Origin: Minisyncoccota bacterium
GTDB taxonomy: Bacteria; Patescibacteriota; Minisyncoccia; Phycocordibacterales; CSBR16-193
DNA length: 64,000 nt
Reading direction: 5' to 3'
Assembly: GCA_040905715.1 (NCBI GenBank)
Contig: JBBDRA010000003.1
Location: forward strand, 71,075 to 135,074
Under the pieces are notes generated by a model. The model did no database searches. It worked only from the letters and a program-made list of their open reading frames with translations, and was not told where the DNA came from. This document shows positions 759 to 56,408 of this stretch, piece by piece (the first letter of the stretch is position 1; each line of letters starts with the position of its first letter). The position numbers and the translations under genes are program-made.

Positions 759-777
759 TTGTTGCACTATTGAAACC

Positions 778-7079: not shown

Positions 7080-8549
<1,470 letters not shown>

Positions 8550-8769
8550 ATTTTTCTGAGTTCGCCACCGGTGAACTCAGTGAAACGGTCGGTCCTGCAC
8601 CTCGATCGAGTGCAGGAAAAATCCTTCGTGGCGTATGTCATGAAGGGCAAAGGTTTTGGTCTCGGAGCCTCAAGTCGAGATCATGTGGACGGAACGAAAG
8701 AGAGAAGAATTGTCTAAGATCCTCATTGTTGACAATCAGCAATGGGGATTTTGTATTCAGCTTCTTCCC

Positions 8770-22003: not shown

Positions 22004-22021
22004 TTATATACCGTTTGGATA

Positions 22022-24540: not shown

Positions 24541-25614
24541 ATGAACACAAAACCGAAAGCATTATATATCAGACGGGATCATTCACGTGAGCCGTTAAAA
24601 AAGAGGATCGTTTCAACATGGCGTCATTTTGCGTATTACACCGGTCAGGAAGGGTTTTTTGAAGAAGCGCTTGCGTCCCAGTTTGATGTGACAGAACAGA
24701 CCGCTGAAGCGTTTCTAAAGAGTGGAAAGAATGCTCAAGGGTACGATGCGGTTGTTGTGAATTTTAAGTGCGATCACAAAGCTATTGCGTCAGATCGATA
24801 TGAAGCAATGAGGATTATCGCTGAAGGTGTTTCAGTACCAACAGTGTTGTTTATCGGACTTGACCGCGCCGCGCATATGCCCGTTAACGAGGTTTTGGAT
24901 CAGTATGATGTTGTGGTAAAGCGAGAGCCGTTCATCGACCGCGACAGGTATTCCTTGTCAGAAAGCAATAAGCACAAGATCATCGCGTCTATGCTTTCAT
25001 GTCCGCTGTTACGCCGGGAGAAAACGCCGATCGTAAAACCGATCACATGGCTCACGAACCAGCGTCAAACCGCTCAAGAAAATGAAGCGTATAAGTATGA
25101 CGTGTTCTTTTCGGGGGCGGTCACGCGAGAGAATGATGTACGACCGGATGTATGGCGACGGGTCCTCGAGGAGCCAGACATTAACGCGTACGGCGGACTA
25201 CAGCCGAGCGCCTCACGTGATCGTCTGCCCGATCCTGAACTCGAGTTCGGCAAGCTGACACCCCAGGAGTTCATTGATACGATCCATCGTTCAAAGATAA
25301 ATCTTGCCCTCGACGGGATCGGCGAGTTCACGTACCGGCATAATGAGCTGTGGCACCTGGGTGCGTTTATGATCAGCAGTCCTTCGTTTCGTGATCTGGA
25401 GATACCGCTTCCGGCCAAAGAAGATGTACATTATGTCTCATACAACAACCTCGATGAGTTAATAGAGAAGATCCACTACTATCTCGAGCATGACGCAGAG
25501 CGGAATAAAATTGCTCACGCCGGAAAGGAGATGTTTGATCAATACTACAACCCAAAGAGTCACGGGCGAGATATAAAGCAAGCGGTAGATCAGCTGCGTA
25601 TTAGTGGAGAGTGA
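24541..25614 (+). CDS. CgeB-like glycosyltransferase-domain protein (Glyco_trans_1_2-like C-terminus)
   Basis: The C-terminal 'NNLDELIEKIHYYLEHDAERNKIAHAGKE' resembles the conserved end of the CgeB/DUF3880 family. Confidence 0.4.
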   Translation: MNTKPKALYIRRDHSREPLKKRIVSTWRHFAYYTGQEGFFEEALASQFDVTEQTAEAFLKSGKNAQGYDAVVVNFKCDHKAIASDRYEAMRIIAEGVSVPTVLFIGLDRAAHMPVNEVLDQYDVVVKREPFIDRDRYSLSESNKHKIIASMLSCPLLRREKTPIVKPITWLTNQRQTAQENEAYKYDVFFSGAVTRENDVRPDVWRRVLEEPDINAYGGLQPSASRDRLPDPELEFGKLTPQEFIDTIHRSKINLALDGIGEFTYRHNELWHLGAFMISSPSFRDLEIPLPAKEDVHYVSYNNLDELIEKIHYYLEHDAERNKIAHAGKEMFDQYYNPKSHGRDIKQAVDQLRISGE

Positions 25615-26005
25615 TGATATAGTATCGACTATGGAAACAGGAGCACTCGCCATATCCACAATCATATTTCTAAGTGTTTGTTTGTTCTTATTGGTTAATA
25701 ACAAAAGATTGCGTGATGAACTTCGACGAGTGGAGAAAGAGAAGCAAGAAGAGGAAGAATCATTTGAACGGTCAGGTGGTTTAGAGGAATATCACGCTGA
25801 ACGTCAGCGAGTGAAAGATGAGCGCAAAGATAGCATTCTTGTTCTTTTCGAGGGCAAGAAGAAGATCAAGAACGCTGACGTTGTGAATGTGTTGGATGTA
25901 TCCTCGGCAACAGCGACCCGGTATTTGGATGAGTTGGAGGAAGAAGGACGTATTCAACAGAATGGCACAACCGGAAGAAGCGTGGTATACGTAGCGGTAA
26001 AATAA
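25604..26005 (+). CDS. Small membrane-anchored protein with a coiled-coil and a C-terminal winged-helix (HTH)-like domain
   Basis: It has an N-terminal TM helix and a charged coiled-coil. The C-terminal 'VVNVLDVSSATATRYLDELEEEGRIQQNGTTGRSVVY' looks like a wHTH. The true start may be the ATG at 25631. Confidence 0.35.
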   Translation: MESDDIVSTMETGALAISTIIFLSVCLFLLVNNKRLRDELRRVEKEKQEEEESFERSGGLEEYHAERQRVKDERKDSILVLFEGKKKIKNADVVNVLDVSSATATRYLDELEEEGRIQQNGTTGRSVVYVAVK

Positions 26006-26045
26006 ACAGCTCACATTGCTTGTGAGCCGTTTAGAAAGCCTATAT

Positions 26046-27239
26046 ATGGCGGAAAACCAACAAAAACCAAAGATACTGATCGTTATTAGCAACCTCGAAG
26101 TCGGTGGTGGTGCTCAGCGGGTTGCATCTACAGTCGGGAACGAACTGAGTGATAAGGGCTTTGAGACGCATCTGCTTACGTTCTATGAATATCCGCAGAC
26201 GTATCCGTATTACGGGGTTTATTATAGTAGGCATGAGAAGCCAAAGAAATTCAGTAAACCGATAAAAGCAGTGATGCGGGTTTGGGATATTGCACAGTAT
26301 TGTAAACGACATAATATACAAACGACAGTAGCCTTCCTTGAAGAGGCGAGTTTTTATTCCATACTAACGAAGCTTTTTTTCAACAGAAGTAGAATAATAG
26401 TTTCAGTGAGAAACAATCCTCATTATAGAAACACATTATATAAAGTCTTAATGCGGCTCCTATATCCATTTGCTGACAGAGTGATCTCTGTCACAAGAGG
26501 TATTGAAGAGATCCTAAAAAAAGATTATAAATTAACGAACACAGCGACGATATATAATCCGATTGATAAAGAGATGATAGAAAAAAGAGCAGAAAACCCC
26601 CTTCCGGAAGAATTTCGCTGGGTAGAAAATAGAACACCTTTATTTATATCTATAGGACGTTTGGTCCAACAAAAAGGTCAATGGCATCTCGTACGCGCGT
26701 TTCAAAAAGTTGTGGAAAAAAATAATGATGCAACGCTTGTCCTTGTCGGGGATGGGAAATTGAAAGATAAACTAAAAAAACTCATTGCTGATTGCGGCTT
26801 GAATAATAATGTTTTTTTGTTCGGAAAACAGAGCAACGTTTTTTCTTTTCTTAAAGCAAGTGATGTATTCATATTTAGTTCTCTCTGGGAAGGGATGCCT
26901 AACACGGTACTTGAAGCTCTTGCAGTCAATTTGCCGGTTGTCACAACTGATTGTGCTACTGGTCCGCGTGAGATCATCGCGCCGGAGCTTGGTATTTTTG
27001 AAAATATTACATACCCCTACATGACACAGTATGGTATTTTGACCATGCCGCTTGGTTTTGAACAAATTTGGGAAAGCAGTGAATCATGCGCATTGACGCA
27101 AGAGGAGAAAGTATTTGCTGATGCTATGATACAGATCTTAGAAAAACCGCTCAAAGATCGGCTAACCGGTCTTAAGGCGTTTCAAATGAATTCTGTTATT
27201 GAGCAGTGGTGTAGAGTAGTTAGCGAGAAGGAGGAATAA
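26046..27239 (+). CDS. Glycosyltransferase family 4
   Basis: The N-terminal 'ILIVISNLEVGGGAQRVA' and C-terminal 'EGMPNTVLEALAVNLPVVTTDCATGPREI' are GT4 motifs. The ORF track starts at 26016, but the ATG at 26046 is preferred. Confidence 0.7.
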   Translation: MAENQQKPKILIVISNLEVGGGAQRVASTVGNELSDKGFETHLLTFYEYPQTYPYYGVYYSRHEKPKKFSKPIKAVMRVWDIAQYCKRHNIQTTVAFLEEASFYSILTKLFFNRSRIIVSVRNNPHYRNTLYKVLMRLLYPFADRVISVTRGIEEILKKDYKLTNTATIYNPIDKEMIEKRAENPLPEEFRWVENRTPLFISIGRLVQQKGQWHLVRAFQKVVEKNNDATLVLVGDGKLKDKLKKLIADCGLNNNVFLFGKQSNVFSFLKASDVFIFSSLWEGMPNTVLEALAVNLPVVTTDCATGPREIIAPELGIFENITYPYMTQYGILTMPLGFEQIWESSESCALTQEEKVFADAMIQILEKPLKDRLTGLKAFQMNSVIEQWCRVVSEKEE

Positions 27240-27933
27240 TATCGAGTCGTGGCCGTTCAGTTCTTCGATCGTTTTCTACGGACTGTTCGTCTCGCCGTAA
27301 GGCGATCGTGTTTTTACAGCTATCAATTACATACCAGTGGCCGCCTGCAAGCAGTTCGCCAACAACTCGAGTAACGCCCGAAAAAGAAATGTGATCATCA
27401 AATATGAGACAGCCTCCATCTCTTACGTACGGTGCGAATTTATCTGCATCCTTGCGGCAGGCTTCATATGAGTGATCTGCATCAATAAAGACAAGGTCAA
27501 ATGTACTATTTTCTGGAACAGCAACATGATGACTGTTCCCTTGTATCGTTTTGATTATATCTTTCCAGGGATCAGTTGTTTCCTGGAAGGATTCAAATGT
27601 ATCCTGTTGTCCTTCAGACATTGCATCGTTATTCCAAGTATCAATGCAGTACAAAAACACGGATGTTTCAGGGTTTCTCTTGCTATCTATAAGACCTTGT
27701 GCAATAACCGCAGTTGACGCGCCTCGGTAGGATCCAATTTCAAGTGCAACTCCAAGCTTGTGGTGATTGATCATCATGCGGTACAAAAAAAGCCGCTCTT
27801 CAGTGTTCGTTGTTCCTTTTGCTTTACTTGCACTGCCGACAATTCTCCCAAGTTGTTTTAAGGGAAAAAAAGTTGTTAGGTAGTGATTGTAAAATCTCCG
27901 AATTTTATTTTTTATTTTTTTTATAAATTTCAT
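27220..27933 (-). CDS. Class I SAM-dependent methyltransferase (Methyltransf_24 / O-MTase-like)
   Basis: It carries 'LEIGSYRGASTAVIAQG' and 'FDLVFIDADHSYEA', typical of the Methyltransf_24 / OMT family 3. Confidence 0.55.
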   Translation of the reverse strand: MKFIKKIKNKIRRFYNHYLTTFFPLKQLGRIVGSASKAKGTTNTEERLFLYRMMINHHKLGVALEIGSYRGASTAVIAQGLIDSKRNPETSVFLYCIDTWNNDAMSEGQQDTFESFQETTDPWKDIIKTIQGNSHHVAVPENSTFDLVFIDADHSYEACRKDADKFAPYVRDGGCLIFDDHISFSGVTRVVGELLAGGHWYVIDSCKNTIALRRDEQSVENDRRTERPRLDIIPPSR

Positions 27934-27950
27934 GTTTGTTTTGTAAGGTT

Positions 27951-28826
27951 TTAATCTTTTGTGTGATACCCAAAAAAGGGAGATAGGAAATTATTGATTT
28001 GATCGTTTAAATATTTTATATCATCAGGCTGTAGAGCATCTTTGTAACCGCCCACCTTCCCTTGACGGACTTTATAGCTTTGTTCGTCTTTTGTTTCTCC
28101 TGCGCCAAATCGTCCTTTAATATAAAGTTCACCAGAACGTTCACGTTTTTTCATATTGTCGAATGCTGAAAATGCAATAGCTTGAGTGAGAGCCTCTTCT
28201 TTCAAAGGAAGACCTAATATGTTTATTAGACGGACCATTTCATGATAGGTGTCACTAGACATGTCTTCATAACGAAGCAAGGTAAATGATGCAGGTATTT
28301 TTTGAGCGTTATTCCAGTGGTTAAGAAAGGTAATAAGCTTGCGTATGCCAAACCGATCATCTCGTATGAAATCGCTCAAAGTACCTTCAAATACTTTTTG
28401 ACGATGTGTGCAGTGAAAATAGTAAGAAACCAGTACGTCTCGAGGATCCCGGACAAGCAAAACAACTTTTTTTGTTTCAAAAGCGGTTTTGTCTGCATTT
28501 AACTCTTCAGAAGGTACGTTGATAGGCTGAGCGTACGTGCTTCCATCATGAACAAAAACTATATGTGGTATATCAGAAATTTGGTGACGTAGGTCTGTAA
28601 TGTCTTCTTGGTGGTCGAGCGGTTTACCATGGAGCGCGGCTACGTAGGCGCTGATGATCATTCTGAGCCAACTTCTTCCCGATTTTGGGTAAGATACGAT
28701 CATGACCTCGGCAAATCTGTTGCGATGCATTTCTGGGTATTCTCGAGAAAATGGCCCGCTTCCAAGACCAATGTATTTTGCTGTCCGATACCACTTTTCT
28801 GGATGTAGATATGATCTTATTACCAT
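27951..28826 (-). CDS. Sulfotransferase (PAPS-dependent, Sulfotransfer_1-like)
   Basis: The 5'-PSB motif is 'YPKSGRSWL' and the 3'-PB motif is 'LLVRDPRDVLVSYY'. Confidence 0.7.
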   Translation of the reverse strand: MVIRSYLHPEKWYRTAKYIGLGSGPFSREYPEMHRNRFAEVMIVSYPKSGRSWLRMIISAYVAALHGKPLDHQEDITDLRHQISDIPHIVFVHDGSTYAQPINVPSEELNADKTAFETKKVVLLVRDPRDVLVSYYFHCTHRQKVFEGTLSDFIRDDRFGIRKLITFLNHWNNAQKIPASFTLLRYEDMSSDTYHEMVRLINILGLPLKEEALTQAIAFSAFDNMKKRERSGELYIKGRFGAGETKDEQSYKVRQGKVGGYKDALQPDDIKYLNDQINNFLSPFFGYHTKD

Positions 28827-29554
28827 GTTGTGTATAGTTGAGAAAATACATCTTCCACTTTTGACCTTAGTAGCTCCTCGCTTTCAGAAGGTAAAGCATT
28901 TTTATTGCTACTTCCTCCGTGCCAAGAAGAAAATATATTTGCAAGTCCTGGATCGATAGCTGCAGCATCTTCTTCTGCATTTTCATACCTGATCAGTATG
29001 GGATCCAATTCTTTTTCCTTAAGCAGCAAGTACTCTTCAGCAAGGCCTCTCCAAAGAGTTGAAAATAGAGTTATACCGCCTACTGAATTAACTCCACCAT
29101 AAGGTTCAACTACACTTAAATGACGGTGTGGCTTGGTCCAGCTAACATATGCGTAGAGTGGGTGGCGGATTAGAAAAACAACATCTTGAACATTGTGCCG
29201 ACTAAAGAAATTCATCACCGGCATCATGTTAAATAGGGCGGTTTGACCGTGTTCTTTTACATAGCCAAGGTAGTTGACCAAGTTTTCATCAATCGTTTTG
29301 TCCAAGACAAGTTGAAATCCTGATCGTTTGTAGAAGGTTGCGCAAGATGTTTCGTTAGGGTATTCCTCATATCCGTTGATTACTTGTCGAGCATTATATT
29401 CAGGCAAATTTTGATCTGCTGACATATATTGCCTGGGCACGAAGCTCGTGTCAGGCTTTGAAGAGTGGAATGCCCCATAACCGCTTTTTGGAATAAGGGT
29501 ATTCAGTGCGCTTGACCCAGAGCCTCCTCGTGAGCAAAAAAAGTGATACCTCAT
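28820..29554 (-). CDS. Sulfotransferase-domain protein (Sulfotransfer_3/Stf0-like), tentative
   Basis: It has an N-terminal P-loop-like 'FFCSRGGSGSSAL' and 'VVFLIRHPLYAYVSW' resembling a 3'-PB. Its start overlaps the upstream sulfotransferase stop. Confidence 0.4.
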   Translation of the reverse strand: MRYHFFCSRGGSGSSALNTLIPKSGYGAFHSSKPDTSFVPRQYMSADQNLPEYNARQVINGYEEYPNETSCATFYKRSGFQLVLDKTIDENLVNYLGYVKEHGQTALFNMMPVMNFFSRHNVQDVVFLIRHPLYAYVSWTKPHRHLSVVEPYGGVNSVGGITLFSTLWRGLAEEYLLLKEKELDPILIRYENAEEDAAAIDPGLANIFSSWHGGSSNKNALPSESEELLRSKVEDVFSQLYTTW

Positions 29555-29564
29555 GATGATAGTA

Positions 29565-30173
29565 TTAGCGACGTTTAAAAATAGATAGTTGTCCAGTATT
29601 TGTATCTTGATTCATTACTGGGATCTGGTCAAACTCTGAGTCGATCATTGCTCTTGGAAGAAGGTCGTTCGTTCGTATTGCCAAGTATGTTTTCGTGCGT
29701 TTAATAATATTTTGAAGTGTGTTTTTAGCATCCTGTTCATTAAGATGATGAAAAACACCAAGGAAAAGAACTATATCATAGGAAGGAAGAAGTAAATCGG
29801 CATTTTCATGTTCAAATTTTCCCCAATCATTGATGTCCGCCTGTCGAAATTCAAAAGAAAGATTATCTTTCTCTTTTTCAAATAACTCATTGGCAAGTGT
29901 TATTGAAATATCTTGGATGTCGAATCCATGGATGAGACGTATACCTTTTTTGAAAAACTCATATGAAATTAAACCTTCTGCGCACCCAAGATCGAGCAGC
30001 GTCGCGTTTTTGCAGATTGTCGTAGTCGCGATTTCTTCAAGTCCACGAAATCGTGTTGAAATATCAACACCTTCTCTTCTTCCTTGTGTATTTAAAACAG
30101 TACTTTTGAAGTAGGGTTGATCACTTTCTTTACTGTAGCCCTTTACGGATTGTTTTCTTTTAAAAAAAATCAT
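29565..30173 (-). CDS. Class I SAM-dependent methyltransferase
   Basis: It has motif I 'LLDLGCAEG' and motif post-I 'HGFDI'. Confidence 0.6.
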   Translation of the reverse strand: MIFFKRKQSVKGYSKESDQPYFKSTVLNTQGRREGVDISTRFRGLEEIATTTICKNATLLDLGCAEGLISYEFFKKGIRLIHGFDIQDISITLANELFEKEKDNLSFEFRQADINDWGKFEHENADLLLPSYDIVLFLGVFHHLNEQDAKNTLQNIIKRTKTYLAIRTNDLLPRAMIDSEFDQIPVMNQDTNTGQLSIFKRR

Positions 30174-30268
30174 GAGCTTTTCTTAGGGTGCTATTGCAGG
30201 AAGCAGAATTATCTTAGATTCTAACCACAATACCATATACTCTTTGTTTTTAGAGTATGGCGTGGTTG

Positions 30269-31114
30269 TTATTTGAGCATGTTGTTAATTTTATACCAAA
30301 GTCGGCTTGTATAGTAGAAAATAGTAAGAAGAGCTGCTAGTAAATAACTCCACATAACGTGCCCTAAGCGTGTCAGTATATTGTTTGAGGAGGTGTTTGG
30401 TGCAAGGATGCCCGTTGAGTTATTAACAGTGATTCCGTTAAAAGTAAGTGGTTTTGGTAGATGTGCTTCGTGATGTGGGTACTGAGGTATTAGTTTGGCA
30501 AGGTTCAACACCCCTTTTTCATCTGGCAGCTTAACATCATGTGTCGTTAGTGTTGTAGAAGAATGTGTGTGCTGTGCGATCGAGTGCAGCGTAGGCCGAT
30601 TGATCGATCCATCAATAAAACAGAAGTCTATCTGTGTGTCTCTAGGTAAATTATCGATAGCCTTTTCGCTCGGTGCGTTAACGAAGGTAATAAATTTATC
30701 GTAACTTGAACCTAGTGCATAATAGATATTTATGTCACAGGTGTATATATGACCAGCACCGTTCTTTTTGAGTGCTTCAGCCATAAACATTGAACTCGTA
30801 CCGATCCATGTACCGATCTCAAAAATAATGTTTGGTTTAAGTTCTCGCACTAATAAATAAAGATAAATACAATCTGATAAACCGGTTGATCCAGCGATGG
30901 TTCCGTTTGGGGTTCGCCTGATAGTTGGGAGTTCTTCTTTGGGGGTTGCGTGTAGATTCTGGTGAATCTTTTGAAATTCAGGCATACGTTCTAGTACTTC
31001 TTCGGCATATGTTTCCCATAAATGGGACGGCATTACGTTTTTATCCATAATGTATTTATAGTTTAAGATGCCCGAAAAGTGATCCGGTGTCATACGCCAG
31101 TATACCTTTTTCAT
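30269..31114 (-). CDS. Class I SAM-dependent methyltransferase (Methyltransf_24-like) with a C-terminal TM helix
   Basis: It carries 'IIFEIGTWIGTSSMFMAEAL' and 'DFCFIDG'. The ORF overlaps the upstream GT-D gene by 59 nt, so the true start is probably a downstream Met at about 31093 or 31048. Confidence 0.5.
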   Translation of the reverse strand: MKKVYWRMTPDHFSGILNYKYIMDKNVMPSHLWETYAEEVLERMPEFQKIHQNLHATPKEELPTIRRTPNGTIAGSTGLSDCIYLYLLVRELKPNIIFEIGTWIGTSSMFMAEALKKNGAGHIYTCDINIYYALGSSYDKFITFVNAPSEKAIDNLPRDTQIDFCFIDGSINRPTLHSIAQHTHSSTTLTTHDVKLPDEKGVLNLAKLIPQYPHHEAHLPKPLTFNGITVNNSTGILAPNTSSNNILTRLGHVMWSYLLAALLTIFYYTSRLWYKINNMLK

Positions 31115-31805
31115 TCAGCTCTGCCGCAAGAATTGTTGCAGTAACTCCACCAGAAATTGCAATGAGGGGGTTTTTAAATTGATTGGCTTCATTTGTGATC
31201 TTTTTAAGTAGTGTGTGATAGTACTTGTAGGTGTTGTGGGATGGAATGGGAATTGAGGTTGCTGGTGAAATGTGCTTGGCTACATCCTGCCCGCTGCCTA
31301 CATAAATGACATCTCTTTCCTTAAATAAGGAAAGAACAAGTTCTTTATATTCTTCGGGGTTATCGTCTATTACATCTTGTAAGCGAAAGCAGAAAGGTGA
31401 CCCGTACACAGCGCCTTTCTTGAGAAGAGGTAACGCAGCGTATTTCGGGGCTCGCCAGTTTTCCGGTGTGCTGTTGCGCTCAGCGTAGTTCTTGGTCAAG
31501 AGAAGATCAAGTGGGACTGCCAAAAGATAGGTTTTTGGTCCGGCGTAGCCTGCAAGAACGTTAGTCAACTTTCTTTTGAGCGTTGCGTTTTGCGTTTGAT
31601 GTACGGCGGGATAACCGACGGTATAGTTAAGCTCGCCGTCACCGTATCGGACGATGCCGACGTTGCTATTTTTGATGTATTCAATTGTCTCGCGGTCTGA
31701 GAGAAACCGAAAATCTTCAAGAGAAGCGTTGAGTTTGAATGGATTGCATGCAAGCCGTGCGGCAATTCTTGACCAAACCTTCAGTTTTCGGATCTTTTTG
31801 TTCAT
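31056..31805 (-). CDS. GT-D type glycosyltransferase (DUF1792 family)
   Basis: The N-terminal 'VRYGDGELNY' matches the DUF1792 '(R/K)(F/Y)GDGE' signature of GtfC/dGT1-type GT-D enzymes. Confidence 0.5.
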   Translation of the reverse strand: MNKKIRKLKVWSRIAARLACNPFKLNASLEDFRFLSDRETIEYIKNSNVGIVRYGDGELNYTVGYPAVHQTQNATLKRKLTNVLAGYAGPKTYLLAVPLDLLLTKNYAERNSTPENWRAPKYAALPLLKKGAVYGSPFCFRLQDVIDDNPEEYKELVLSLFKERDVIYVGSGQDVAKHISPATSIPIPSHNTYKYYHTLLKKITNEANQFKNPLIAISGGVTATILAAELNEKGILAYDTGSLFGHLKL

Positions 31806-32689
31806 ACGTGTTTCCAGTGAGAGAGGTCTCTGTTGGTCAGACGCTCGAGTTTCTCGATGTCTGTATAAAAGTATTCTACCAGTTCTTGTTTGAACGTGTC
31901 TGAGAGAGGCTTCGCTCCGCCGATGAGTTTCTGGACGAACGGAAGGTTCCGTAGGCTGCGGCGGATGCCGAGTGCTTTCTTAAGTCGGCCAGCCAATTTT
32001 ATAAGCCGGCGAGCAAGAGGTGAGCGAGTTGCTTTCCTGCGGTGAATAACCGGGAAGTCGTTTCTGCCGTCGTCCTCAACACCGAGAAACGAGAGGGTTT
32101 TTTGGTAGACGGCTTTCGGGTCTTTCTTGAGGTCGTCGTAGAAGATAACAAGTACTCGGTCTTCTCCTGCTTGCTTAAATACACGTTCGAGCTGCTCGCC
32201 GGTCCGGCAGATCTCGCCGTAGCGAAGTTCACCGTTGTTGGTATCACCGGGTTGGCGCGGCTTTTTGGTGTCTATTTGCTTATGTTTTTCCCACGCTTCT
32301 TCCGGAGCATGTGCTTGCTCAGATCCTTCATAGACACGTTGCCAGTAGAGAGACTCGAACATCTCTATCGGATTGCGGAGCATTACGATAAACCGGGTGT
32401 CGGGATTATGTTCAAGAATGTTTGGAATAGCTTCCGGGGTCCGTAGAAGTCGTGTCGGTGCTCCGCCGAGAGCCGTGTGCCCGGCGGCGCCGGCGAATGC
32501 CTGAGCAAGATATTCCTCGCGTGTGCGGTATTTGTCTCGGGCGCGAGAATAGGCGGTGTAGTACTCAGCCTCTTTTGGTTCCGATACGAATATATCCGGA
32601 TGATCGCGTAGGTACTCGGAAAGCGCGGTGGTGCCGCATTTTGGCGCGCCGAGAATAAAGAAGGTGGGCTGTGGTGTGTTCGTGAACAT
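31802..32689 (-). CDS. Sulfotransferase (PAPS-dependent)
   Basis: The 5'-PSB is 'ILGAPKCGTTALSEYL' and the 3'-PB is 'IVMLRNPIEMFESLY'. The coding sequence is GC-rich relative to neighbours. Confidence 0.7.
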   Translation of the reverse strand: MFTNTPQPTFFILGAPKCGTTALSEYLRDHPDIFVSEPKEAEYYTAYSRARDKYRTREEYLAQAFAGAAGHTALGGAPTRLLRTPEAIPNILEHNPDTRFIVMLRNPIEMFESLYWQRVYEGSEQAHAPEEAWEKHKQIDTKKPRQPGDTNNGELRYGEICRTGEQLERVFKQAGEDRVLVIFYDDLKKDPKAVYQKTLSFLGVEDDGRNDFPVIHRRKATRSPLARRLIKLAGRLKKALGIRRSLRNLPFVQKLIGGAKPLSDTFKQELVEYFYTDIEKLERLTNRDLSHWKHV

Positions 32690-32692
32690 TTC

Positions 32693-33418
32693 TTATACAC
32701 GCTTGAGCTTCTGTTTGAGCGATCGCTTCCATCGGCGAAAGTAACCGATCAGGACGCGTTTGTTTTGGAACACTTTTTTGAGAAAGAGCCGCGCTCTGTT
32801 TTCAAGACGGTCCAGTTGTGTATTCCGATCTACTTTTTGAGCGTATACGGTTGAGCTGGCGATACGCGGCTTTTTGAAGTGAGGAGACCGATATACGGTT
32901 TCGTCGACAAGGCGAGAGACGCCTTCCCAAGTAAGAGCGTCGTGAAAGGCAACAATGCCGCCGACGGCAACTTTGGGAAACCACAACTCAAGATCCTCTT
33001 TGGCAGATTCGTAGGAATGATCGCCGTCGATAAAAAGCAGTCCGATCGTTTGGTTGTAGGTGCCGGCGAAGGTCTCGGCGGCTTCGGCCGAGGTCGATAC
33101 GATCGGTGTTACACTCTGAGCAACACCGTGCTTTTCCAGATTATTTTTAAATTCATCAAACGTCCATACCTGGCCGAACAGTTGTTGGTGTTCCTTGGAT
33201 CCGGTGTGTGGATCGATCGCGTACACCCGCGCGCTGTTTCCCTCGGTTGACCCCGAAGCCAGACAGAGTGTCGAGCGTCCCTTCCAGGAGCCGATCTCGA
33301 CAATAGCCATATCACTTGGGCACGCTTGAGCAAGTGTATAGAGAACCGCTCCTTCTTTGTCGGTTAGCCAGCCGTCAATAGACCGCATCGACCGGAGTGT
33401 TGTAGCAAGATTAATCAT
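32693..33418 (-). CDS. Class I SAM-dependent methyltransferase (Methyltransf_24-like)
   Basis: It carries 'IVEIGSWKGRSTLCLASG' and 'LLFIDGDHSYE'. Confidence 0.55.
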   Translation of the reverse strand: MINLATTLRSMRSIDGWLTDKEGAVLYTLAQACPSDMAIVEIGSWKGRSTLCLASGSTEGNSARVYAIDPHTGSKEHQQLFGQVWTFDEFKNNLEKHGVAQSVTPIVSTSAEAAETFAGTYNQTIGLLFIDGDHSYESAKEDLELWFPKVAVGGIVAFHDALTWEGVSRLVDETVYRSPHFKKPRIASSTVYAQKVDRNTQLDRLENRARLFLKKVFQNKRVLIGYFRRWKRSLKQKLKRV

Positions 33419-33473: not shown

Positions 33474-34745
33474 ATGCAAGCAGTGTATAATTTTTCTATG
33501 GTTAGAGCAAAAGAACGATTGAAGCATTTATTGCGCTGGAGCGAGCAATATACGAAAACCGATATGATCTACGCGGCTCGGGGCGGGTTTTGGTTAACCG
33601 TGGGTAAAATCGTTCTCTCCGCCACCTCGTTTGCTACGATGGTGGTGTTTGCCAATCTGCTTCCGGCTGAAATATACGGTAACTATCAGTTCGTGCTTGC
33701 TACGGTAAGCGTACTGACCATTTTTTCACTGCCGGGTATTAAGAACGCCCTGGTGCGTAGTGTGGCTCGGGGAGATGAAGGATCATTCCTCACGGCGTTC
33801 TGGGTGAGAATGAAATGGTCAGTGCTTACAAGTATTGCGTTGGGTTGTGTCGGGCTTTGGTATTTTTGGAATGAGGATGTTCTTCTTCTCGCGGCTTTTC
33901 TCGTCGCAGCCTTTTTGTTCCCACTGCGAATGGCTGAACCAACGACTGAGCAGTTTTGGCAAGGGAGAAAACAGTTCAATATACAGATAGCGACACATTT
34001 GATCGTGACCTTTGCTTCAGCGGTGGCCGTTATGGCGACACTGTGGGTAACCGATAATCTTGTCTACATCCTTCTGGCTTTCTTTGGAGTTCAGGCGGTA
34101 TTCGGGATTGGTGTGTATCTATTTACGATGTCTCGGTTGCGCAACCACCGCGTTGATAAAGATATGGTCTCTTACGGCAAGTCGTTGACGGTCATGAGTG
34201 TCATAGGGACAGCTGCAGACCATTTAGATAAAATACTCCTGTTTGCGTTTCTCCCCCCGGCCCATCTCGCGGTGTATTCTTTTGCGATCGATCCGGTAAA
34301 AAAGGTGAAGGGATTTTTCTCGATCAAAGAGCTTGCTCTCCCTAAACTCAGTCAGCACGGAGTTGCCGGTGAGGCTCGAAAGAAAAAAGTGTTTTATAAG
34401 ACGCTTCGATTGTTCGCGGTATCAGTGCCGGCGGCGTTTTTGCTTGCGGTAAGCGCGCCGTATATCTATGAGTTCATATTTCCTCAGTACGTTGAGTCAG
34501 TTGTATATTTTCAGGCATTGACCGTTCTTGTTGCATTCACGCCATTTGCCATCTTTGGCGCGTCACTTCTGGCGGAGATGAAAACAACCTCACAATACAT
34601 ACTTCAGATCACGGTGCCTTCGCTTAAGATACTTTTCTTTTTTGTCCTTATACCGCTGTGGGGCATCTGGGGGGTCGTCTTTGCTATTGTTGTAGCTGAA
34701 ATAGTGCGAGGAGTGTTAGTGACGTTCTTGTACTGGCGGATGTGA
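33474..34745 (+). CDS. Oligosaccharide/polysaccharide flippase (Wzx, MOP superfamily)
   Basis: It has 12 predicted TM helices and a Polysacc_synt-like N-terminus ('AARGGFWLTVGKIVLSATSFATMVVFANLL'). The start may be the ATG at 33498. Confidence 0.65.
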   Translation: MQAVYNFSMVRAKERLKHLLRWSEQYTKTDMIYAARGGFWLTVGKIVLSATSFATMVVFANLLPAEIYGNYQFVLATVSVLTIFSLPGIKNALVRSVARGDEGSFLTAFWVRMKWSVLTSIALGCVGLWYFWNEDVLLLAAFLVAAFLFPLRMAEPTTEQFWQGRKQFNIQIATHLIVTFASAVAVMATLWVTDNLVYILLAFFGVQAVFGIGVYLFTMSRLRNHRVDKDMVSYGKSLTVMSVIGTAADHLDKILLFAFLPPAHLAVYSFAIDPVKKVKGFFSIKELALPKLSQHGVAGEARKKKVFYKTLRLFAVSVPAAFLLAVSAPYIYEFIFPQYVESVVYFQALTVLVAFTPFAIFGASLLAEMKTTSQYILQITVPSLKILFFFVLIPLWGIWGVVFAIVVAEIVRGVLVTFLYWRM

Positions 34746-34799: not shown

Positions 34800-37052
34800 G
34801 TGCGATATATGAAAGACGTGAATGACATTATTCGGTATGCGGTCATCGGACTGGTAATGCTGGTGCCGGCCGTGGCGCTTATTGTTGCCAACGATCTGTT
34901 CTTTCCGTACATCACCGGAAAGAACATTATGTTTCGGGTGTTGGTAAGTCTGGCACTTGCCGGCTGGCTCTTGCTCGCTGCTGCGGATCCACGGTATCGA
35001 CCGCATCGCTCACCGATGCTGTATGCGCTTTTACTATTTGTGCTGGTTGTGGGGCTGGCTGATCTATTCGGTATAAGTCCCGCCCAAAGCTTGTGGTCGA
35101 ACTTTGAGCGAATGGAGGGCTTCGTTACGATACTTCACCTGCTCGCGTTCTTTGTCGTAGCAAGTTCTGTTCTGACAACCGAGCGATTGTGGAGCTGGTT
35201 TTTTCACATATCTATTGGCATCTCGGTCATTGTCGGACTGCATGCTCTAGGAGGTGATTCGGTACGAGCAAGTAACCTGCTCGGAAACTCGATCTACGTG
35301 GCGATCTACATGCTCTTCCATGCTTTCCTGGCGTGCTTGTTCTTGGTGCGGACGTGGGGGAAGCATATCGGATACACGATCAGCTACGGCGCGATCATTG
35401 CGTTTTTGATATTGATCATGATGCTGACCGATACGCGAGGTACCATGCTCGGACTTCTCGTGGGCTTTGGTGTAATGGCGCTTATAGTTGCTGTTCTTGG
35501 GAGGGGATATCCGGCACTTCGTAAGATCGCTCTTGGGGTGGTTGCACTCGGTTTGATCACTGCGATCGGATTTGCTTCGGTTCTGACTATAAACAATGCG
35601 TATCCTGACGTTGCTGAGGAGAATAGTTTTGTGCAAGCAGTAAATGATGTGCCGGTGATCGGTACGCTCGCGTCGATCAATCTTACCGGGGTCAATAGCG
35701 GTACAACCCGTCTCTACATTTGGGGAATCGCTCTGCAGGGTCTGGAAGAGCGTCCGGTGCTTGGTTGGGGGCAGGAGAACTTTGGTGTGGTGTTCGATAA
35801 AAACTATGACCCGATCCTCGCTACTCGTGAGCAGTGGTTCGATCGCGCTCACAATACGTTCGTCGACTGGCTTTCGGCGGCCGGTATTCTTGGTCTGCTC
35901 ACGTATGTCTCACTGTACGGGGTATTACTCTGGCTTATCTGGAGAGACCCGAGTGAGAACTGGCCGTTTCTCGAGAAGGTGGTGTTGACCGGTATGGTCG
36001 TGGCGTATGCGGTACATAATCTATTCGTGTTCGACAGTATCACGAGCTATATTCTGTTCTTTGTGGTGATGGCGTATGTCGCTCGACAGACTGCTTCGGA
36101 TGATCGGCGCGTGCTTGCCGCTTTGCCGGCGGTAAATATGCCGGTGTACAGTGTTGTTGCATCACTCGCGCTGGTGGGGGTCATCGCTTCGATCTATATG
36201 ACGGCATACCGGCCGTATGTAGCGAGCAATGAGCTTTTAACCGGACTTCGTAATGTGGCAATGGATCAATACGAAAGTGGACTTCCGCATTTTGAGAACG
36301 CTCTGGCGTACGCAGAAAGAGGAATTGGTTCTCAGGAGATACGCGAACAGATCGCTCAGACAGCAGCGGATCTAATAAATCAGGACGTAGACCCGTCGAT
36401 CACCCAAGGGTATGTTGAGTTAGGAGATTCGGAACTTGAAAAACACGCCGAGAGTTTTCCTCACGATACGAGGCCGTATGTTGTGTGGGGGCAAATGCTG
36501 ACAGAGGCCGGTCAGTTTGAGTTGGCGGAAGAGAGGCTGCTTTCGGGACTGGAAACATCGCCACACAAACAGATGATCATGTTTCAGTTAATGAGCATTC
36601 ATGTTGAGCAAGGACAGTACGAGGAAGCGGTAGAGTGGAGCAAGCGGGCATTCGAGTTGAATCCGGATTATGATCAGGCGCGTATTCGCTACGCGATCGC
36701 GTTGCGATATGCCGGGGAAATGGAGCAGGCAGAAGAAGTGCTTGAGCCGCTCGGAGAATCCGCTCTTTTTAGTGATCAGCTTCTGGGGCCGTACCTGGCA
36801 AGAGGCGAGTATGAAGAGCTTATAGCGGTACGCCGACAGCGTGTTGAGATACTCAATGAACGCCTAGAAGCAAGTGAGGATCCCTCAGTTCTTGAACAGG
36901 TCGCGCAGGAGCGAGTGTTGATCGCTGTGACCTATTACGAGATGGGGGACTCAGAGCGAGCGATCCAAGAGTTTGAAAGTATAAAGGCGGACTACCCGAA
37001 CTTTGCCTCGCAGATCGACTCGTACATCGAACGAATTCAGGAGGAACGGTAA
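34800..37052 (+). CDS. O-antigen ligase/polymerase-like (Wzy_C) polytopic membrane protein fused to C-terminal TPR repeats
   Basis: The multi-TM N-terminal 420 aa contain a 'WFDRAHNTFVDWLSAAGILGLL' Wzy_C-like motif. The C-terminal ~300 aa are TPR-like ('AVEWSKRAFELNPDYDQARIRYAIALRYAGE'). Confidence 0.5.
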   Translation: MRYMKDVNDIIRYAVIGLVMLVPAVALIVANDLFFPYITGKNIMFRVLVSLALAGWLLLAAADPRYRPHRSPMLYALLLFVLVVGLADLFGISPAQSLWSNFERMEGFVTILHLLAFFVVASSVLTTERLWSWFFHISIGISVIVGLHALGGDSVRASNLLGNSIYVAIYMLFHAFLACLFLVRTWGKHIGYTISYGAIIAFLILIMMLTDTRGTMLGLLVGFGVMALIVAVLGRGYPALRKIALGVVALGLITAIGFASVLTINNAYPDVAEENSFVQAVNDVPVIGTLASINLTGVNSGTTRLYIWGIALQGLEERPVLGWGQENFGVVFDKNYDPILATREQWFDRAHNTFVDWLSAAGILGLLTYVSLYGVLLWLIWRDPSENWPFLEKVVLTGMVVAYAVHNLFVFDSITSYILFFVVMAYVARQTASDDRRVLAALPAVNMPVYSVVASLALVGVIASIYMTAYRPYVASNELLTGLRNVAMDQYESGLPHFENALAYAERGIGSQEIREQIAQTAADLINQDVDPSITQGYVELGDSELEKHAESFPHDTRPYVVWGQMLTEAGQFELAEERLLSGLETSPHKQMIMFQLMSIHVEQGQYEEAVEWSKRAFELNPDYDQARIRYAIALRYAGEMEQAEEVLEPLGESALFSDQLLGPYLARGEYEELIAVRRQRVEILNERLEASEDPSVLEQVAQERVLIAVTYYEMGDSERAIQEFESIKADYPNFASQIDSYIERIQEER

Positions 37053-48019: not shown

Positions 48020-48039
48020 TTCTCTTTCTTTTATTTGTT

Positions 48040-49284: not shown

Positions 49285-49321
49285 TCAAATGAAGGGCTGA
49301 TCTTTTGGCAACCTAACACTA

Positions 49322-49753
49322 TTGCAACCTATGTTCATTAAACACAATTACTCACATCCATTACTTCGCAAGTTTTTGAGTCGTCACGAACCGCAGAATG
49401 TTCGGCCGGTGCGGGCCGGAAGCGCACGCATGCGTCAGTATCTTTCGGTGTGGCGAAGACAGCCTGAAGCTGCTCGTGTGATACGAGAGTGTCAAAGGGT
49501 TGATGAGGAAAATGCGTTCAAAGCGATCGATGGCTCTGCGGTATATACATTGGTAGACCTCCATGAGTTGCTTCGGCGTTTAGAAACAGAACACTACGAG
49601 CATCACACCGGTGGCACATGCAATGATTTTTCCTGTTGGTTGCGTGATGTTTGGAACGAAGAGATCGCGGCTGAACTTATCAGTCGAGCAGCTGCTCAGG
49701 CGGAGGCGGCAGCTATTCTTGAGCGACTATGTCGCCGACGGGGCGAGCTGTAA
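49322..49753 (+). CDS. Hypothetical protein (GC-rich orphan ORF); true start uncertain
   Basis: This is the only long ORF in the 49.3-49.8 kb gap. It has coding-like composition, contains 'HHTGGTCNDFSCW' and has no recognised domain. Confidence 0.3.
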   Translation: MQPMFIKHNYSHPLLRKFLSRHEPQNVRPVRAGSARMRQYLSVWRRQPEAARVIRECQRVDEENAFKAIDGSAVYTLVDLHELLRRLETEHYEHHTGGTCNDFSCWLRDVWNEEIAAELISRAAAQAEAAAILERLCRRRGEL

Positions 49754-49807
49754 AGACAGGGCGGTGTAAAAGTTTCAAAAGAGAAGGTAAAACGACAAAT
49801 GTAATCT

Positions 49808-56402: not shown

Positions 56403-56408
56403 AAAACA

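Follow-up and report, generated by a model that had tools for sequence, protein, structure and literature searches.

Comparison with related contigs shows, at the level of sequence, that a minus-strand block of tailoring genes is a four-part mosaic, composed of an exchanged piece A, an orphan low-GC methyltransferase gene, a resident GT-D gene, and an exchanged piece B. The block lies in the window, the whole stretch of 64,000 nucleotides analysed here. We assign a probability of about 0.7 to the whole account, namely that this is the mosaic tailoring block of a Wzx/Wzy-type surface-glycan locus whose pieces were exchanged within the locus. The window proteins are 100% identical to proteins of Paceibacterota metagenome-assembled genomes, and the window DNA is 99.98% identical to GCA_040879545.1.

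The block spans 27,220-33,418 and contains eight consecutive minus-strand ORFs (Table 1), as the text of the initial annotation stated; the seven genes of its title were a miscount. The surrounding locus is otherwise on the plus strand, as had been described, and the sole other minus-strand ORF of at least 150 aa treated as a gene in the whole window is located at 16349-17227. The tight coupling of stops and starts noted earlier corresponds to overlaps of 7 nt (28820/28826) and 4 nt (31802/31805). Seven of the eight enzyme assignments hold by Pfam matches above the gathering score, which comprise three Methyltransf_24 (70, 49, and 99 bits), one Methyltransf_31/25 (46 bits), two Sulfotransfer_1 (95.5 and 58 bits), and one GT-D (52 bits). 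The exception is the second assigned sulfotransferase, ORF3, which has no Pfam, NCBIfam, or PDB match by sequence. The flanking Wzy_C protein bears TPR repeats at its C-terminus, as indicated by TPR family matches. The PAPS synthase gene is situated 5 kb downstream of the block, and its product contains ATP-sulfurylase (276 bits), APS_kinase (193 bits), and PUA_2 (144 bits) domains. The flanking genes also include a Bac_transf priming transferase, although its distance of 25 kb from the block counts against the account.

Table 1. Features of the tailoring block and its neighbours, in window positions
Feature	Position	Strand	Basis or remark
HTH, small winged-helix regulator	25604..26005	+	weak HTH_24 and Fe_dep_repress matches
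GT4 glycosyltransferase	26016..27239	+	Glycos_transf_1, 116 bits
MT24, Methyltransf_24 (TylF/CmcI-type) O-methyltransferase, 237 aa	27220..27933	-	PF13578, 70 bits
ST1, cytosolic-SULT-like PAPS-type sulfotransferase, 291 aa	27951..28826	-	PF00685, 95.5 bits
ORF3, unannotated family, ~240 aa	28820..29554	-	remote sulfotransferase / P-loop-kinase-like fold
MT31, Methyltransf_31/25 class I SAM methyltransferase, 202 aa	29565..30173	-	PF13847, 46.5 bits
Intergenic gap, 95 nt, with hairpin	30174..30268	-	L002 collinearity ends here
Orphan Methyltransf_24-like methyltransferase, 281 aa	30269..31114	-	PF13578, 49 bits
GT-D fold glycosyltransferase	31056..31805	-	PF08759, 52 bits
ST295, HS3ST/3RNL-like sulfotransferase	31802..32689	-	PF00685 58 bits, PF13469 56 bits
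Methyltransf_24 O-methyltransferase, 241 aa, first in block	32693..33418	-	PF13578, 98.7 bits
Wzx-type flippase, divergent from block	33474..34745	+	Polysacc_synt, 61 bits
Wzy_C membrane protein (O-antigen polymerase/ligase/O-OTase family)	34800..37052	+	PF04932, 64.5 bits
Fused ATP sulfurylase-APS kinase (PAPS synthase), 591 aa	38186..39961	+	three domains, one protein

The block is predicted to sulfate and O-methylate a Wzx/Wzy-type glycan. A lipid-linked repeat unit would be built by the plus-strand GT4 and GT1-like genes together with GT-D. On the cytoplasmic side, two canonical PAPS-dependent sulfotransferases of different subfamilies would sulfate the unit and four SAM-dependent methyltransferases would decorate it, as probably would ORF3, a divergent sulfotransferase-fold enzyme. 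The fused ATP sulfurylase/APS kinase is the presumed source of the PAPS donor. Wzx would flip the decorated unit, which the Wzy_C-TPR protein would then polymerise or transfer. We infer the substrate, the modified positions, and the operon structure of the block.

The nearest solved structure to ST1 by sequence is SULT2B1 (E = 1.8e-12), and ST1 is also near the glycopeptide sulfotransferases Teg12/14 and StaL. ST295 matches 3RNL (E = 2.9e-26) and heparan sulfate 3-O-sulfotransferases (~1e-4) in the PDB. The kinship of ST1 with small-molecule enzymes would suit a different product, either a lipid or small molecule or a short glycan put on surface proteins by the Wzy_C-TPR protein, a possibility that we take seriously but think doubtful. 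Besides polymerases, O-antigen ligases and O-oligosaccharyltransferases belong to the Wzy_C family (PF04932), the protein here carries TPR repeats, and no chain-length regulator is seen in the window, all in keeping with a protein-linked glycan. Acceptors could then be pilins or an S-layer, with the Wzy_C-TPR protein as a PglL/PilO-type O-oligosaccharyltransferase; this would alter the acceptor, not the tailoring chemistry. However, four glycosyltransferase genes and a Wzx flippase surround the block, ST295 resembles carbohydrate sulfotransferases, and related cyanobacterial genes lie within Wzm/Wzt polysaccharide-export loci. A Wzx/Wzy-type glycan is the substrate we favour.

ORF3 is probably a third, divergent sulfotransferase, as suggested by remote matches of family profiles and of a structural model. 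Its family comprises 170 clusters among 1.84 billion representatives, and the sole recurring Pfam match in it is Sulfotransfer_3, weakly matched by 5 of 50 members (best E = 4.6e-4). The hhalign comparison of the ORF3 and ST295 families (probability 43%, E = 2.5e-4) lines up the 3'-phosphate-binding R-x-P...S motif and the sulfotransferase 'RYE' motif. The best PDB match of the AF2 model (pLDDT 96.5) in Foldseek is SULT2A1 (E = 7.5e-3, probability 0.96, TM 0.42-0.47), followed by Stf0 and then by NMP kinases. An N-terminal GGSGS motif is conserved in the family and favours the start that gives 244 aa over the one called by NCBI, which gives 201 aa.

The family is without the conserved lysine of the sulfotransferase 5'-PSB loop, and NMP kinases score similarly in Foldseek, features that would also fit an enzyme of this P-loop-like fold that acts as a phosphotransferase or binds nucleotides. 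With the adjacent methyltransferase, such an enzyme would form a WbdD-like, methyl-phosphate-type cap. MT31 is always paired with ORF3, and the same adjacency, MT31 then ORF3, is seen in the metagenome contig with P0125, which is unrelated. The WbdD kinase has the eukaryotic protein-kinase fold, which differs from that of ORF3. In a cyanobacterium, the MT31-ORF3 pair directly follows Wzm/Wzt, which recalls the kinase-plus-methyltransferase terminator WbdD (PMC3482155). Nevertheless, the GGSGS(T/S) motif is also without the Walker-A lysine required by P-loop kinases, and the recurring Pfam match, the aligned motifs, and the top-ranked structural matches are all to sulfotransferases. We therefore consider the phosphotransferase reading unlikely and treat ORF3 as a probable sulfotransferase.

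Base composition is not uniform across the region. When 20-40 kb is segmented with two boundaries, the best solution is a low-GC segment at 25,420-31,400 with a GC of 0.401, versus 0.511 outside (log-likelihood gain 103, far beyond chance). The AT-rich tract reported in the initial annotation is thus real (40% versus 51%), but its limits are 25.4-31.4 kb rather than 27.2-31.8 kb. It starts ~1.8 kb ahead of the strand switch, taking in the plus-strand HTH (GC 0.43, GC3 z = -2.3) and GT4 (GC 0.396) genes, and ends at ~31.4 kb within the GT-D gene, in which GC drops across the 3' third. Third codon positions account for most of the shift, with a GC3 z of -2.3 to -5.1 in all seven genes between 25604 and 31114; the orphan methyltransferase gene has a GC of 0.397. 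The two genes at 31.8-33.4 kb, previously given as 55-58% GC, measure 52.9% and 51.4%, with peak 400-bp windows of 54% and a GC3 z of +0.9 for ST295 and +0.7 for the methyltransferase. This piece is at genomic background GC, not GC-rich, and composition alone would have missed it.

Piece A (26.0-30.25 kb, ~4.2 kb) consists of the plus-strand GT4 gene and a cassette of MT31, ORF3, ST1, and MT24. Contrary to what had been proposed for the low-GC piece, its limits are not those of the minus-strand block, since GT4 is included and the homology boundary is at ~30.25 kb. Piece A is shared with L002, an independent JGI metagenome contig, whose collinearity by blastn stops at window position 30,249. 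The identity at four-fold degenerate sites is 0.52 (223/430) in piece A and 0.26 (59/226) in orthologues on its flanks (Fisher test, p = 2e-10), where the relatives, here and below, are metagenomic contigs and flank divergence represents only 2-4 genes per comparison. Protein identity is 69-83% within piece A and 35-60% in the flanks. It reaches 83% for MT24, 81% for MT31, 79% for ST1 (other homologues at most 50%), and 80% for GT4, which has a four-fold site identity of 0.52 and next-best relatives at most 47% identical. GT4 and MT24 are convergent with a 20-nt overlap, and L002 has a convergent overlap of the same length. The HTH orthologue in L002, annotated HTH_24/MarR, is 60% identical; its four-fold sites (0.22) are saturated, and HTH is thus part of the old flank rather than of the exchanged piece. 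Judged by these sites, piece A has far more recent common ancestry with this CPR contig than its flanks have.

On protein comparison, the closest non-CPR relatives of piece A are cyanobacterial. The cassette order is kept in Xenococcaceae contigs at 44-51% protein identity, with 51% for MT31 and 49% for MT24. MT24, which is 47% identical to its counterpart in cyanobacterium SU2, adjoins the ST1 orthologue in L002 and in both cyanobacteria. The top ST1 matches in species-representative genomes are Microcystaceae (45%) and cyanobacterium SU2 (44%), and the best 80 of 571 matches include no further CPR genome. An NJ tree of ST1 places the two CPR sequences beside three cyanobacteria, which form their sister clade; the node that joins both groups has 97% bootstrap support. 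As the two clades are sisters and not nested, the direction of transfer is not given by the tree.

The cyanobacterial genes reside in Wzm/Wzt loci, with all four cassette genes in Xenococcaceae MO_207.B15 (44-51% identity) and the ST1-MT24 pair in Unicellular cyanobacterium SU2 (44-47%). These loci use ABC transporter export with a Wzt_C domain, whereas the locus here is of Wzx/Wzy type. Their GT4 gene is co-oriented and is no orthologue of GT4 here (24% identity), and their GC is 26-28% compared with about 40% here. By analogy only, this context resembles the WbdD terminators of E. coli O9a/O8, in which a methyltransferase and a second transferase are found beside Wzm/Wzt. In the cyanobacterial Wzm/Wzt context, the cassette enzymes could likewise cap the non-reducing end, the part recognised by the Wzt C-terminal domain (PMC3482155). 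WbdD is, however, one protein with a kinase, and a sequence relationship to the cassette was not found. To our knowledge, capping is not part of the mechanism of the Wzx/Wzy pathway, which the CPR locus uses.

The 95-nt gap next to piece A contains a hairpin (RNA fold -20 kcal/mol, z = -2.8). The orphan methyltransferase beyond it has a hydrophobic C-terminal tail and is called at 259 aa by NCBI versus 281 aa here. No relative was found in any of the loci compared; the L002 spacer may hold what is left of the 3' end of the gene, a weak match (E = 0.018). The nearest solved structure to GT-D is GalT1/DUF1792 (PDB 4PHR, E = 1e-18). GT-D is 58-62% identical in protein sequence to its counterparts in contigs L008 and L010, with saturated four-fold sites (0.27-0.34). 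Wzx shows 45% protein identity in L008, L009, and L010, also with saturated synonymous sites. By these comparisons, both GT-D and Wzx appear to have been in the locus for a long time.

Piece B (31.8-33.4 kb) consists of the ST295 gene and the methyltransferase gene at 32693..33418 and is common to higher-GC Paceibacterota. Its four-fold site identity to L010 is 0.55 (120/219), whereas the neighbouring GT-D and Wzx genes have 0.30 (50/169; p = 7e-7). At the protein level, piece B is 75-83% identical to L010 and L008. ST295 has a four-fold site identity of 0.48-0.52 to both contigs, and its Paceibacterota homologues are graded at 75, 74, 67, 63, and 52% identity. The methyltransferase is 82-83% identical to that of L010 in protein and 83% in nucleotide sequence, with 0.57 at four-fold sites. 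Pieces A and B are shared with different relatives and differ in GC, and thus have separate histories. The four-fold sites bear out the earlier conclusion that at least two pieces acquired by horizontal transfer went into the block, although the reasoning and map behind it were partly wrong.

No att site, tRNA, or transposase was found at 27.2, 31.8, and 33.4 kb, the positions singled out previously for mobile-element remnants. The term island, in the mobile-element sense, is therefore inapplicable, and the exchange resembles a replacement of alleles inside the locus. The inverted orientation of the block is real but not a recent event. The divergent arrangement of Wzx and sulfotransferase-GT-D is kept in L008, L009, and L010, all from other Paceibacterota; together with the conserved GT4/MT24 overlap, this indicates that the strand switch is old locus architecture. 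Exchange thus appears to have occurred by replacement at conserved locus positions, like serotype switching of O-antigens and capsules, and not by mobile-element insertion.

The lack of scars would also agree with a history free of horizontal exchange, in which the AT-rich tract arose in place and the cassette similarity reflects stronger protein constraint. In 3 of 3 contexts examined, a cyanobacterium included (GC 0.26-0.28 versus 0.38-0.39 for the host), the cassette has a higher AT content than its host, and its low GC in each host could partly be a property of the genes and not of donor composition. L008 has a like GC drop beside its GT-D gene, making a gene-class effect conceivable. AT-richness of this origin would be attributed to relaxed selection or AT-biased mutation in weakly expressed accessory genes. 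We nonetheless consider such a history improbable. Constraint on the protein would not leave four-fold sites unsaturated (0.52 and 0.55 versus 0.26 and 0.30 in flanks), for which composition alone predicts an identity of 0.24-0.30, and both the placement of CPR with cyanobacteria in the ST1 tree and the want of other CPR among the best 80 ST1 matches stand against it. It is very improbable that the low-GC tract is DNA of another organism misassembled or misbinned onto a Paceibacterota contig, despite the metagenome-assembled source and the abrupt change in composition, as the sequence is recorded twice at NCBI (in a contig of 523 kb and in JBBDKD010000003.1 of 38 kb), the junction on the left (GT1-like, HTH, GT4, convergent MT24 overlap) recurs in L002 at 74% nucleotide identity, and genes overlap across internal boundaries, for example at 31802/31805.

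Exchange within the locus has counterparts in known systems. The variable, low-GC central regions of O-antigen and capsule clusters such as Salmonella enterica rfb likewise carry tailoring, glycosyltransferase, and Wzx genes between conserved genes, include stretches whose GC differs and is lower, and exchange genes by replacement at a constant locus, leaving no mobile-element scars. In O-antigen clusters, segments of differing, low GC have been read as separate histories (PMC3715488). Salmonella rfb differs in its enterobacterial host, compared with a reduced-genome CPR bacterium here, in having Wzx and Wzy as the lowest-GC genes, both at background GC here, and in encoding sugar-nucleotide pathways where sulfotransferases and methyltransferases are found here.

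The predicted tailoring chemistry also has precedents. In mycobacterial glycopeptidolipid, CmcI/TylF-type sugar O-methyltransferases, which are rhamnosyl O-methyltransferases, and PAPS-dependent Stf sulfotransferases act on one glycan, a combination like that of the block. In rhizobial Nod-factor sulfation (NodH/NoeE with NodPQ), a dedicated PAPS synthase is near the sulfotransferases, as here. The enzymes of these two systems act on lipids or oligosaccharides rather than on Wzx/Wzy repeat units, and the NCBIfam matches to RhmsylMtase and NoeE are weak, far under the family cut-offs (18 vs 400 and 16.5 vs 500 bits). Sulfotransferases are found in Wzx/Wzy EPS clusters (PMC8205485). Compared by description, the Synechan (xss) cluster of Synechocystis sp. 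PCC 6803 is also of Wzx/Wzy type and has glycosyltransferases and two sulfotransferases of distinct subfamilies (PMC8205485). No XssS/R/Q regulator, PCP, or OPX genes of that cluster are seen here, whereas four methyltransferases, GT-D, and an adjacent PAPS synthase are present here.

Sulfated polysaccharides and sulfotransferase-bearing EPS clusters have been called a cyanobacterial speciality (PMC8205485). At the gene level, as far as sequence comparison goes, the CPR locus argues against such a speciality, and so does the broad distribution of ST1 and ST295 homologues across taxa. A mosaic variable region in a polysaccharide locus is long known from O-antigen loci; here it is found in an unusual lineage, a CPR bacterium with a tiny genome.

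The block contains eight genes, all on the minus strand, as the text of the initial annotation stated under a title that gave seven. Among the open reading frames of at least 150 aa that were treated as genes, the window holds only one other minus-strand gene, and all the rest lie on the plus strand. The gene overlaps claimed at 28820/28826 and 31802/31805 are real. The block is embedded in a Wzx/Wzy-dependent assembly locus composed of a flippase, a Wzy-family protein, three GT4/GT1-like genes plus the GT-D gene, and a priming enzyme located 25 kb from the block. A promoter and terminator scan was uninformative, with fewer promoter-like sites than in shuffled sequence and none in the divergent gap at 33.42-33.47 kb, and no operon is claimed from it.

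Genes of the minus-strand block and of the surrounding glycan locus
Gene	Position (nt)	Strand	Product (aa)	Remark
Bac_transf priming transferase	742-2121			180 bits
GT4	23353	+		upstream of block
GT1-like	24541	+		upstream of block
Small HTH gene	25604	+		upstream of block
GT4	26016-27239	+		converges on block, 20-nt overlap
Methyltransf_24 (MT24)	27220-27933	-	237	
Sulfotransfer_1 (ST1)	27951-28826	-	291	
ORF3	28820-29554	-	244	no Pfam match
Methyltransf_31/25 (MT31)	29565-30173	-	202	
Methyltransf_24-like	30269-31114	-	281	
GT-D	31056-31805	-	249	
Sulfotransfer_1/3 (ST295)	31802-32689	-	295	
Methyltransf_24	32693-33418	-	241	
Wzx	33474	+		downstream of block; Polysacc_synt 61 bits
Wzy_C-TPR	34800	+		downstream of block; Wzy_C 64.5 bits
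MurB		+		downstream of block
Fused ATP sulfurylase/APS kinase (PAPS synthase)	38186-39961	+		downstream of block

The window DNA is 99.98% identical to contig JBBDKD010000003.1 of GCA_040879545.1, and two window proteins are 100% identical to Candidatus Paceibacterota MAG proteins in NCBI, on a 523-kb contig. An exact-protein look-up with the Wzx product returned no record. The spacer between the MurB and PAPS synthase genes of JBBDKD010000003.1 contains a 100-N gap (1200-1299 of this locus, L001), where the window has 27 nt.

The GC content of the window is 0.483, and GC3 averages 0.518 (SD 0.047) over background genes. A two-boundary scan of 20-40 kb delimits a low-GC segment at 25,420-31,400, with a GC content of 0.401 vs 0.511 outside and a log-likelihood gain of 103. 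Third codon positions account for most of the shift: GC3 is 0.27-0.41 (z of -2.3 to -5.1) in the seven genes between 25604 and 31114, and the GT-D gene is intermediate (z = -1.5). The AT-rich tract described in the initial annotation is real, but its limits were misplaced: it begins ahead of the strand switch and takes in plus-strand genes. The 55-58% GC given there for 31.8-33.4 kb does not hold, as ST295 measures 52.9% and the 241-aa methyltransferase gene 51.4% (GC3 z of +0.9 and +0.7), which is ordinary for the genome. Codon-usage distance singles out ST295 (z = 3.0) although its GC3 is normal, a signal dismissed as short-gene noise. The remaining minus-strand gene, a Cu-oxidase_4/YfiH-PgeF-like gene between murD and murC (16349-17227), deviates the other way (GC 0.578, GC3 0.66, about +3 SD). 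From its composition, it may be another acquired gene.

A segment was regarded as exchanged if it combined atypical composition with an ancestry shared with another lineage more recently than that of the flanking genes. ORF3 serves as a rare marker: a word-indexed search gave four matches, whose neighbourhoods reveal a conserved gene order of MT31, ORF3, ST1, and MT24, referred to here as the cassette. L002, a CPR-like metagenome contig (JGI 3300023283), is sequentially composed of Wzy_C, a group of Wzx, MT31, ORF3, ST1, and MT24, and convergent GT4, HTH, and GT1-like genes. The remaining four block genes are absent from L002, which is collinear with 25,096-30,249 of the window at 74% nucleotide identity. 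The GT4 and the four cassette proteins are 69-83% identical between the two loci, whereas the flanking GT1-like, HTH, Wzx, and Wzy proteins are 35-60% identical. At four-fold sites, the identity is 0.42-0.59 for these five genes (pooled 223/430 = 0.52) and 0.17-0.31 for the flanks (pooled 59/226 = 0.26; Fisher p = 2e-10). The flank value is near the 0.24-0.30 predicted by composition alone in parallel comparisons with L008 and L010, two related Paceibacterota contigs. Thus, the segment at about 26.0-30.25 kb, termed piece A, split from its L002 counterpart much more recently than the surrounding locus. Its GC3 is also atypical (z of -3.1 to -5.1), so that piece A displays both properties of an exchanged segment.

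A metagenome scan with the GT4 protein found no more cassette-bearing contigs; its best matches were 43-47% identical and on contigs of 2-3 kb. On one metagenome contig (L094), a GT4 homologue adjoins an HHH-PKD gene. In the window, a ComEA-like HHH-PKD protein and a VirD4/TraG-like coupling ATPase (636 aa) are encoded at 20093-23356 (+), between the Mur ligase genes and the glycan genes.

Piece B (31.8-33.4 kb) consists of ST295 and the 241-aa methyltransferase gene. Homologues of ST295 in Paceibacterota show graded identities of 75, 74, 67, 63, and 52%. In L008, L010, and a third related contig, L009, ST295 occupies the same position, transcribed away from Wzx and in translational coupling with a GT-D gene. 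The two piece B proteins are 75-83% identical to those of L010/L008, with a four-fold identity of 0.48-0.58 (pooled 120/219 = 0.55). In contrast, four-fold sites are saturated in the neighbouring GT-D and Wzx genes (58-62% and 45% protein identity, respectively; pooled four-fold identity 50/169 = 0.30, with Fisher p = 7e-7), which makes piece B a second, independent exchange. Piece B shows recent ancestry only, its composition being typical (z of +0.7 to +0.9). Its partner lineages have 54-59% GC in these genes. The GT-D and Wzx genes behave as old residents of the locus. The two acquired pieces of the initial annotation hold in substance on the four-fold sites, but their basis and boundaries need correcting, and the observation as a whole is partly confirmed.

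The GT-D protein scores 51.9 bits against PF08759 (gathering threshold 27) and matches the GalT1/DUF1792 structure (PDB 4PHR) over residues 23-243 with an E value of 1.1e-18. It was rejected as an SP_1767 equivalog (63.9 bits vs a cut-off of 290.75). A recombination breakpoint within the GT-D gene was considered, as DNA similarity to L008/L010 stops and GC falls at about 31.35 kb. However, the C-terminal region of the GT-D gene of L008 is itself less conserved and lower in GC. Immediately past the GT-D gene of L008, GC falls from about 0.59 to about 0.42, and the GT and MT genes that follow are a different set, indicating the same mosaic architecture with different cargo. L008 (7373-9965) and L010 (3741-6251) have two Wzx paralogues in tandem beside the ST-GT-D pair, compared with a single copy in the window.

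No fetched locus contains a relative of the methyltransferase gene at 30269-31114. The Methyltransf_24-like genes of about 282 aa in cyanobacterial and L008 loci were considered as orthologues but are not detectably so (E = 0.03 to 5). A weak match (E = 0.018) links the gene to a 267-bp spacer of L002 (1955-2221), whose translated end, WYKIIKIIK before a stop, resembles the C terminus of the methyltransferase, WYKINNMLK before its stop. The match suggests that a 3'-end remnant of the gene persists in L002, and it may represent the trace of a deletion. On the minus strand of the window, a hairpin of -20 kcal/mol (z = -2.8) is located at 30174-30268, exactly at the end of the L002 homology.

Direct and inverted repeats within 24-35.5 kb are short, chance-like matches, none of which brackets 25.4, 27.2, 30.25, 31.8, or 33.4 kb. 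No tRNA gene lies nearby, the nearest being at 13.8 and 63.4 kb, and a recombinase domain is absent from every ORF of the region. A mobile genomic island is therefore rejected, as the region has no integrase or transposase, flanking direct repeats (att), or adjacent tRNA. The att or transposase remnants that the initial annotation proposed to look for at 27.2, 31.8, and 33.4 kb are likewise missing from these boundaries. The picture is one of allelic replacement at fixed positions.

The cassette also occurs in cyanobacteria (loci L004, 4884-14782, and L012, 6669-13168). In Xenococcaceae contigs, it directly follows Wzm/Wzt, and in cyanobacterium SU2, an ST1-MT24 pair follows a Wzt that carries a Wzt_C domain. 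In cyanobacteria, the cassette may serve an ABC-transporter pathway by building a cap that terminates the chain. In Xenococcaceae, the cassette is followed by an 859-aa protein without a Pfam domain. The next-best homologues of ST1 do not exceed 50% identity. In a set of 185,579 species-representative genomes, its two best matches are cyanobacterial (45% and 44%), and the best 80 of 571 matches include no CPR genome. In a neighbour-joining tree, the two CPR sequences of ST1 group with a sister clade of three cyanobacterial sequences, and this grouping has a bootstrap value of 97%. Wherever the cassette was examined, it is richer in AT than its host, with a GC content of 0.36-0.43 vs 0.47-0.49 in L002 and 0.26-0.28 vs 0.38-0.39 in the cyanobacterium.

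ST1 scores 95.5 bits against PF00685 (Pfam gathering threshold 22), and ST295 scores 58.1 bits against PF00685 and 56.3 bits against PF13469 (threshold 27). ST1 is SULT-like, matching SULT2B1 at 1.8e-12 as well as Teg12/14 and StaL in the PDB. ST295 is closest to 3RNL (2.9e-26) in the PDB and resembles heparan sulfate 3-O-sulfotransferases. The two are predicted to be canonical sulfotransferases of different subfamilies. Together with the PAPS synthase, they would provide the genetic potential for a sulfated glycan.

ORF3 has no Pfam or NCBIfam match and falls outside PF00685, PF13469, and PF03567. Its family comprises 170 clusters at 50% identity in an exhaustive profile search. An alignment of 50 sequences displays conserved G10-G11-x-G13-S14 after the first strand, (R/K)33-P34-D35, R130-H131-P132, S138, R144-H145, G153-G154, W168, and R189-(Y/F)-E191. 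The N-terminal loop, GGSGS(T/S), contains no conserved Lys or Arg; the 5'-PSB loop of the sulfotransferase fold is a strand-loop-helix with a Lys. Conservation is complete or almost complete at R130, P132, and S138, which match the 3'-PB motif (R...S) of ST295 and ST1 in alignments. Five of the 50 members reach Sulfotransfer_3 weakly (best E = 4.6e-4), and hhalign pairs the ORF3 and ST295 families with a probability of 43% (E = 2.5e-4), placing R-H-P...S on R-N-P...S. An AlphaFold2 model from a deep alignment has a pLDDT of 96.5. In a Foldseek search of the PDB, its first match is SULT2A1 (E = 7.5e-3, probability 0.96-0.97, TM 0.42-0.47), followed by Stf0 (TM 0.41) and then NMP kinases; the two sulfotransferase matches reach only TM 0.41-0.47 at E about 1e-2. 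These profile, alignment, and structure matches make the sulfotransferase label of the initial annotation plausible but unproven: the fold class is probably right, and the donor and chemistry are inferred only. PDB sequence searches with ORF3 profiles gave nothing even at E = 10, and pattern scans of genome and metagenome contigs for the family gave nothing either. Wider alignments (A2, A4) were too divergent for search patterns, and domain fusions in longer family members were uninformative. The NCBI call WDZ82_00340 (L001, 10001-10606) starts 43 codons late and predicts 201 aa. It omits the N terminus that is present in all homologues and contains GGSGS, the most conserved motif of the family; the 244-aa ORF3 is thus the better call.

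In the proposed mechanism, ST1 and ST295 would sulfate a lipid-linked repeat unit in the cytoplasm, and the methyltransferases would O-methylate the same unit, both ahead of flipping by Wzx. Cytoplasmic modification is the simplest reading given the PAPS synthase in the same locus. Wzy_C-TPR would then either polymerise the unit or pass it to a protein or lipid acceptor. O-antigen and capsule loci show the same mosaic pattern as the block, and the synechan cluster is the characterised case of a Wzx/Wzy cluster with two sulfotransferases. The synechan authors regarded sulfated polysaccharides and sulfotransferase-bearing clusters as a cyanobacterial speciality, otherwise unknown in bacteria (PMC8205485). 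The homologue lists of the sulfotransferases, with 1,232 and 1,742 matches over many phyla, weaken this view at the gene level. For unnamed homologues, the names of their clusters gave no taxonomic information. A literature search on sulfotransferases in Patescibacteria or the candidate phyla radiation found nothing relevant.

CPR bacteria, or Patescibacteria, have very small genomes, typically with unlinked rRNA genes, and their attachment to hosts is believed to run through the cell surface. The window contains a complete 16S rRNA gene (7091-8553, +) without an adjoining 23S gene, followed by a GH108 lysozyme-like ORF (9435-10040) and tRNA-Ile (10722). A class A RNase P RNA (55928-56403, +) barely reaches the Rfam gathering score (100.5 vs 100) and carries insertions, spanning 476 nt vs 367 model positions. 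An alpha-glucan set of GT4/GT5 glycogen-synthase-like, GH57, and GH15 glucoamylase-like genes (46760-51796, +) suggests storage-glucan metabolism in a reduced genome.

To our knowledge, CPR glycans are essentially uncharacterised. Here, one Paceibacterota genome devotes PAPS synthesis, two to three sulfotransferases, and four methyltransferases to a single glycan. Its tailoring genes swap as cassettes among CPR lineages, like serotype genes in well-studied pathogens, and one cassette is common to CPR and cyanobacteria. This is a classic polysaccharide-locus mosaic in a new host and changes no paradigm; the added value lies in the CPR host, the cyanobacterial link, and ORF3, which represents a compact, unannotated family with a probable sulfotransferase fold, comprising about 170 clusters at 50% identity and suited to biochemical work. 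A broader reading, to which we give only about one chance in ten, is that MT31-ORF3-ST1-MT24 is a portable module for a sulfated, O-methylated sugar epitope that moved between unicellular cyanobacteria and CPR, that ORF3 represents a previously undescribed sulfotransferase-fold family, and that the module, placed after Wzm/Wzt in cyanobacteria, may build a chain-end cap read by the C-terminal domain of Wzt. If this portable-module reading is true, the Paceibacterota cell would carry a surface epitope resembling that of cyanobacteria, possibly as a sign of physical (episymbiotic) contact with them or of mimicry.
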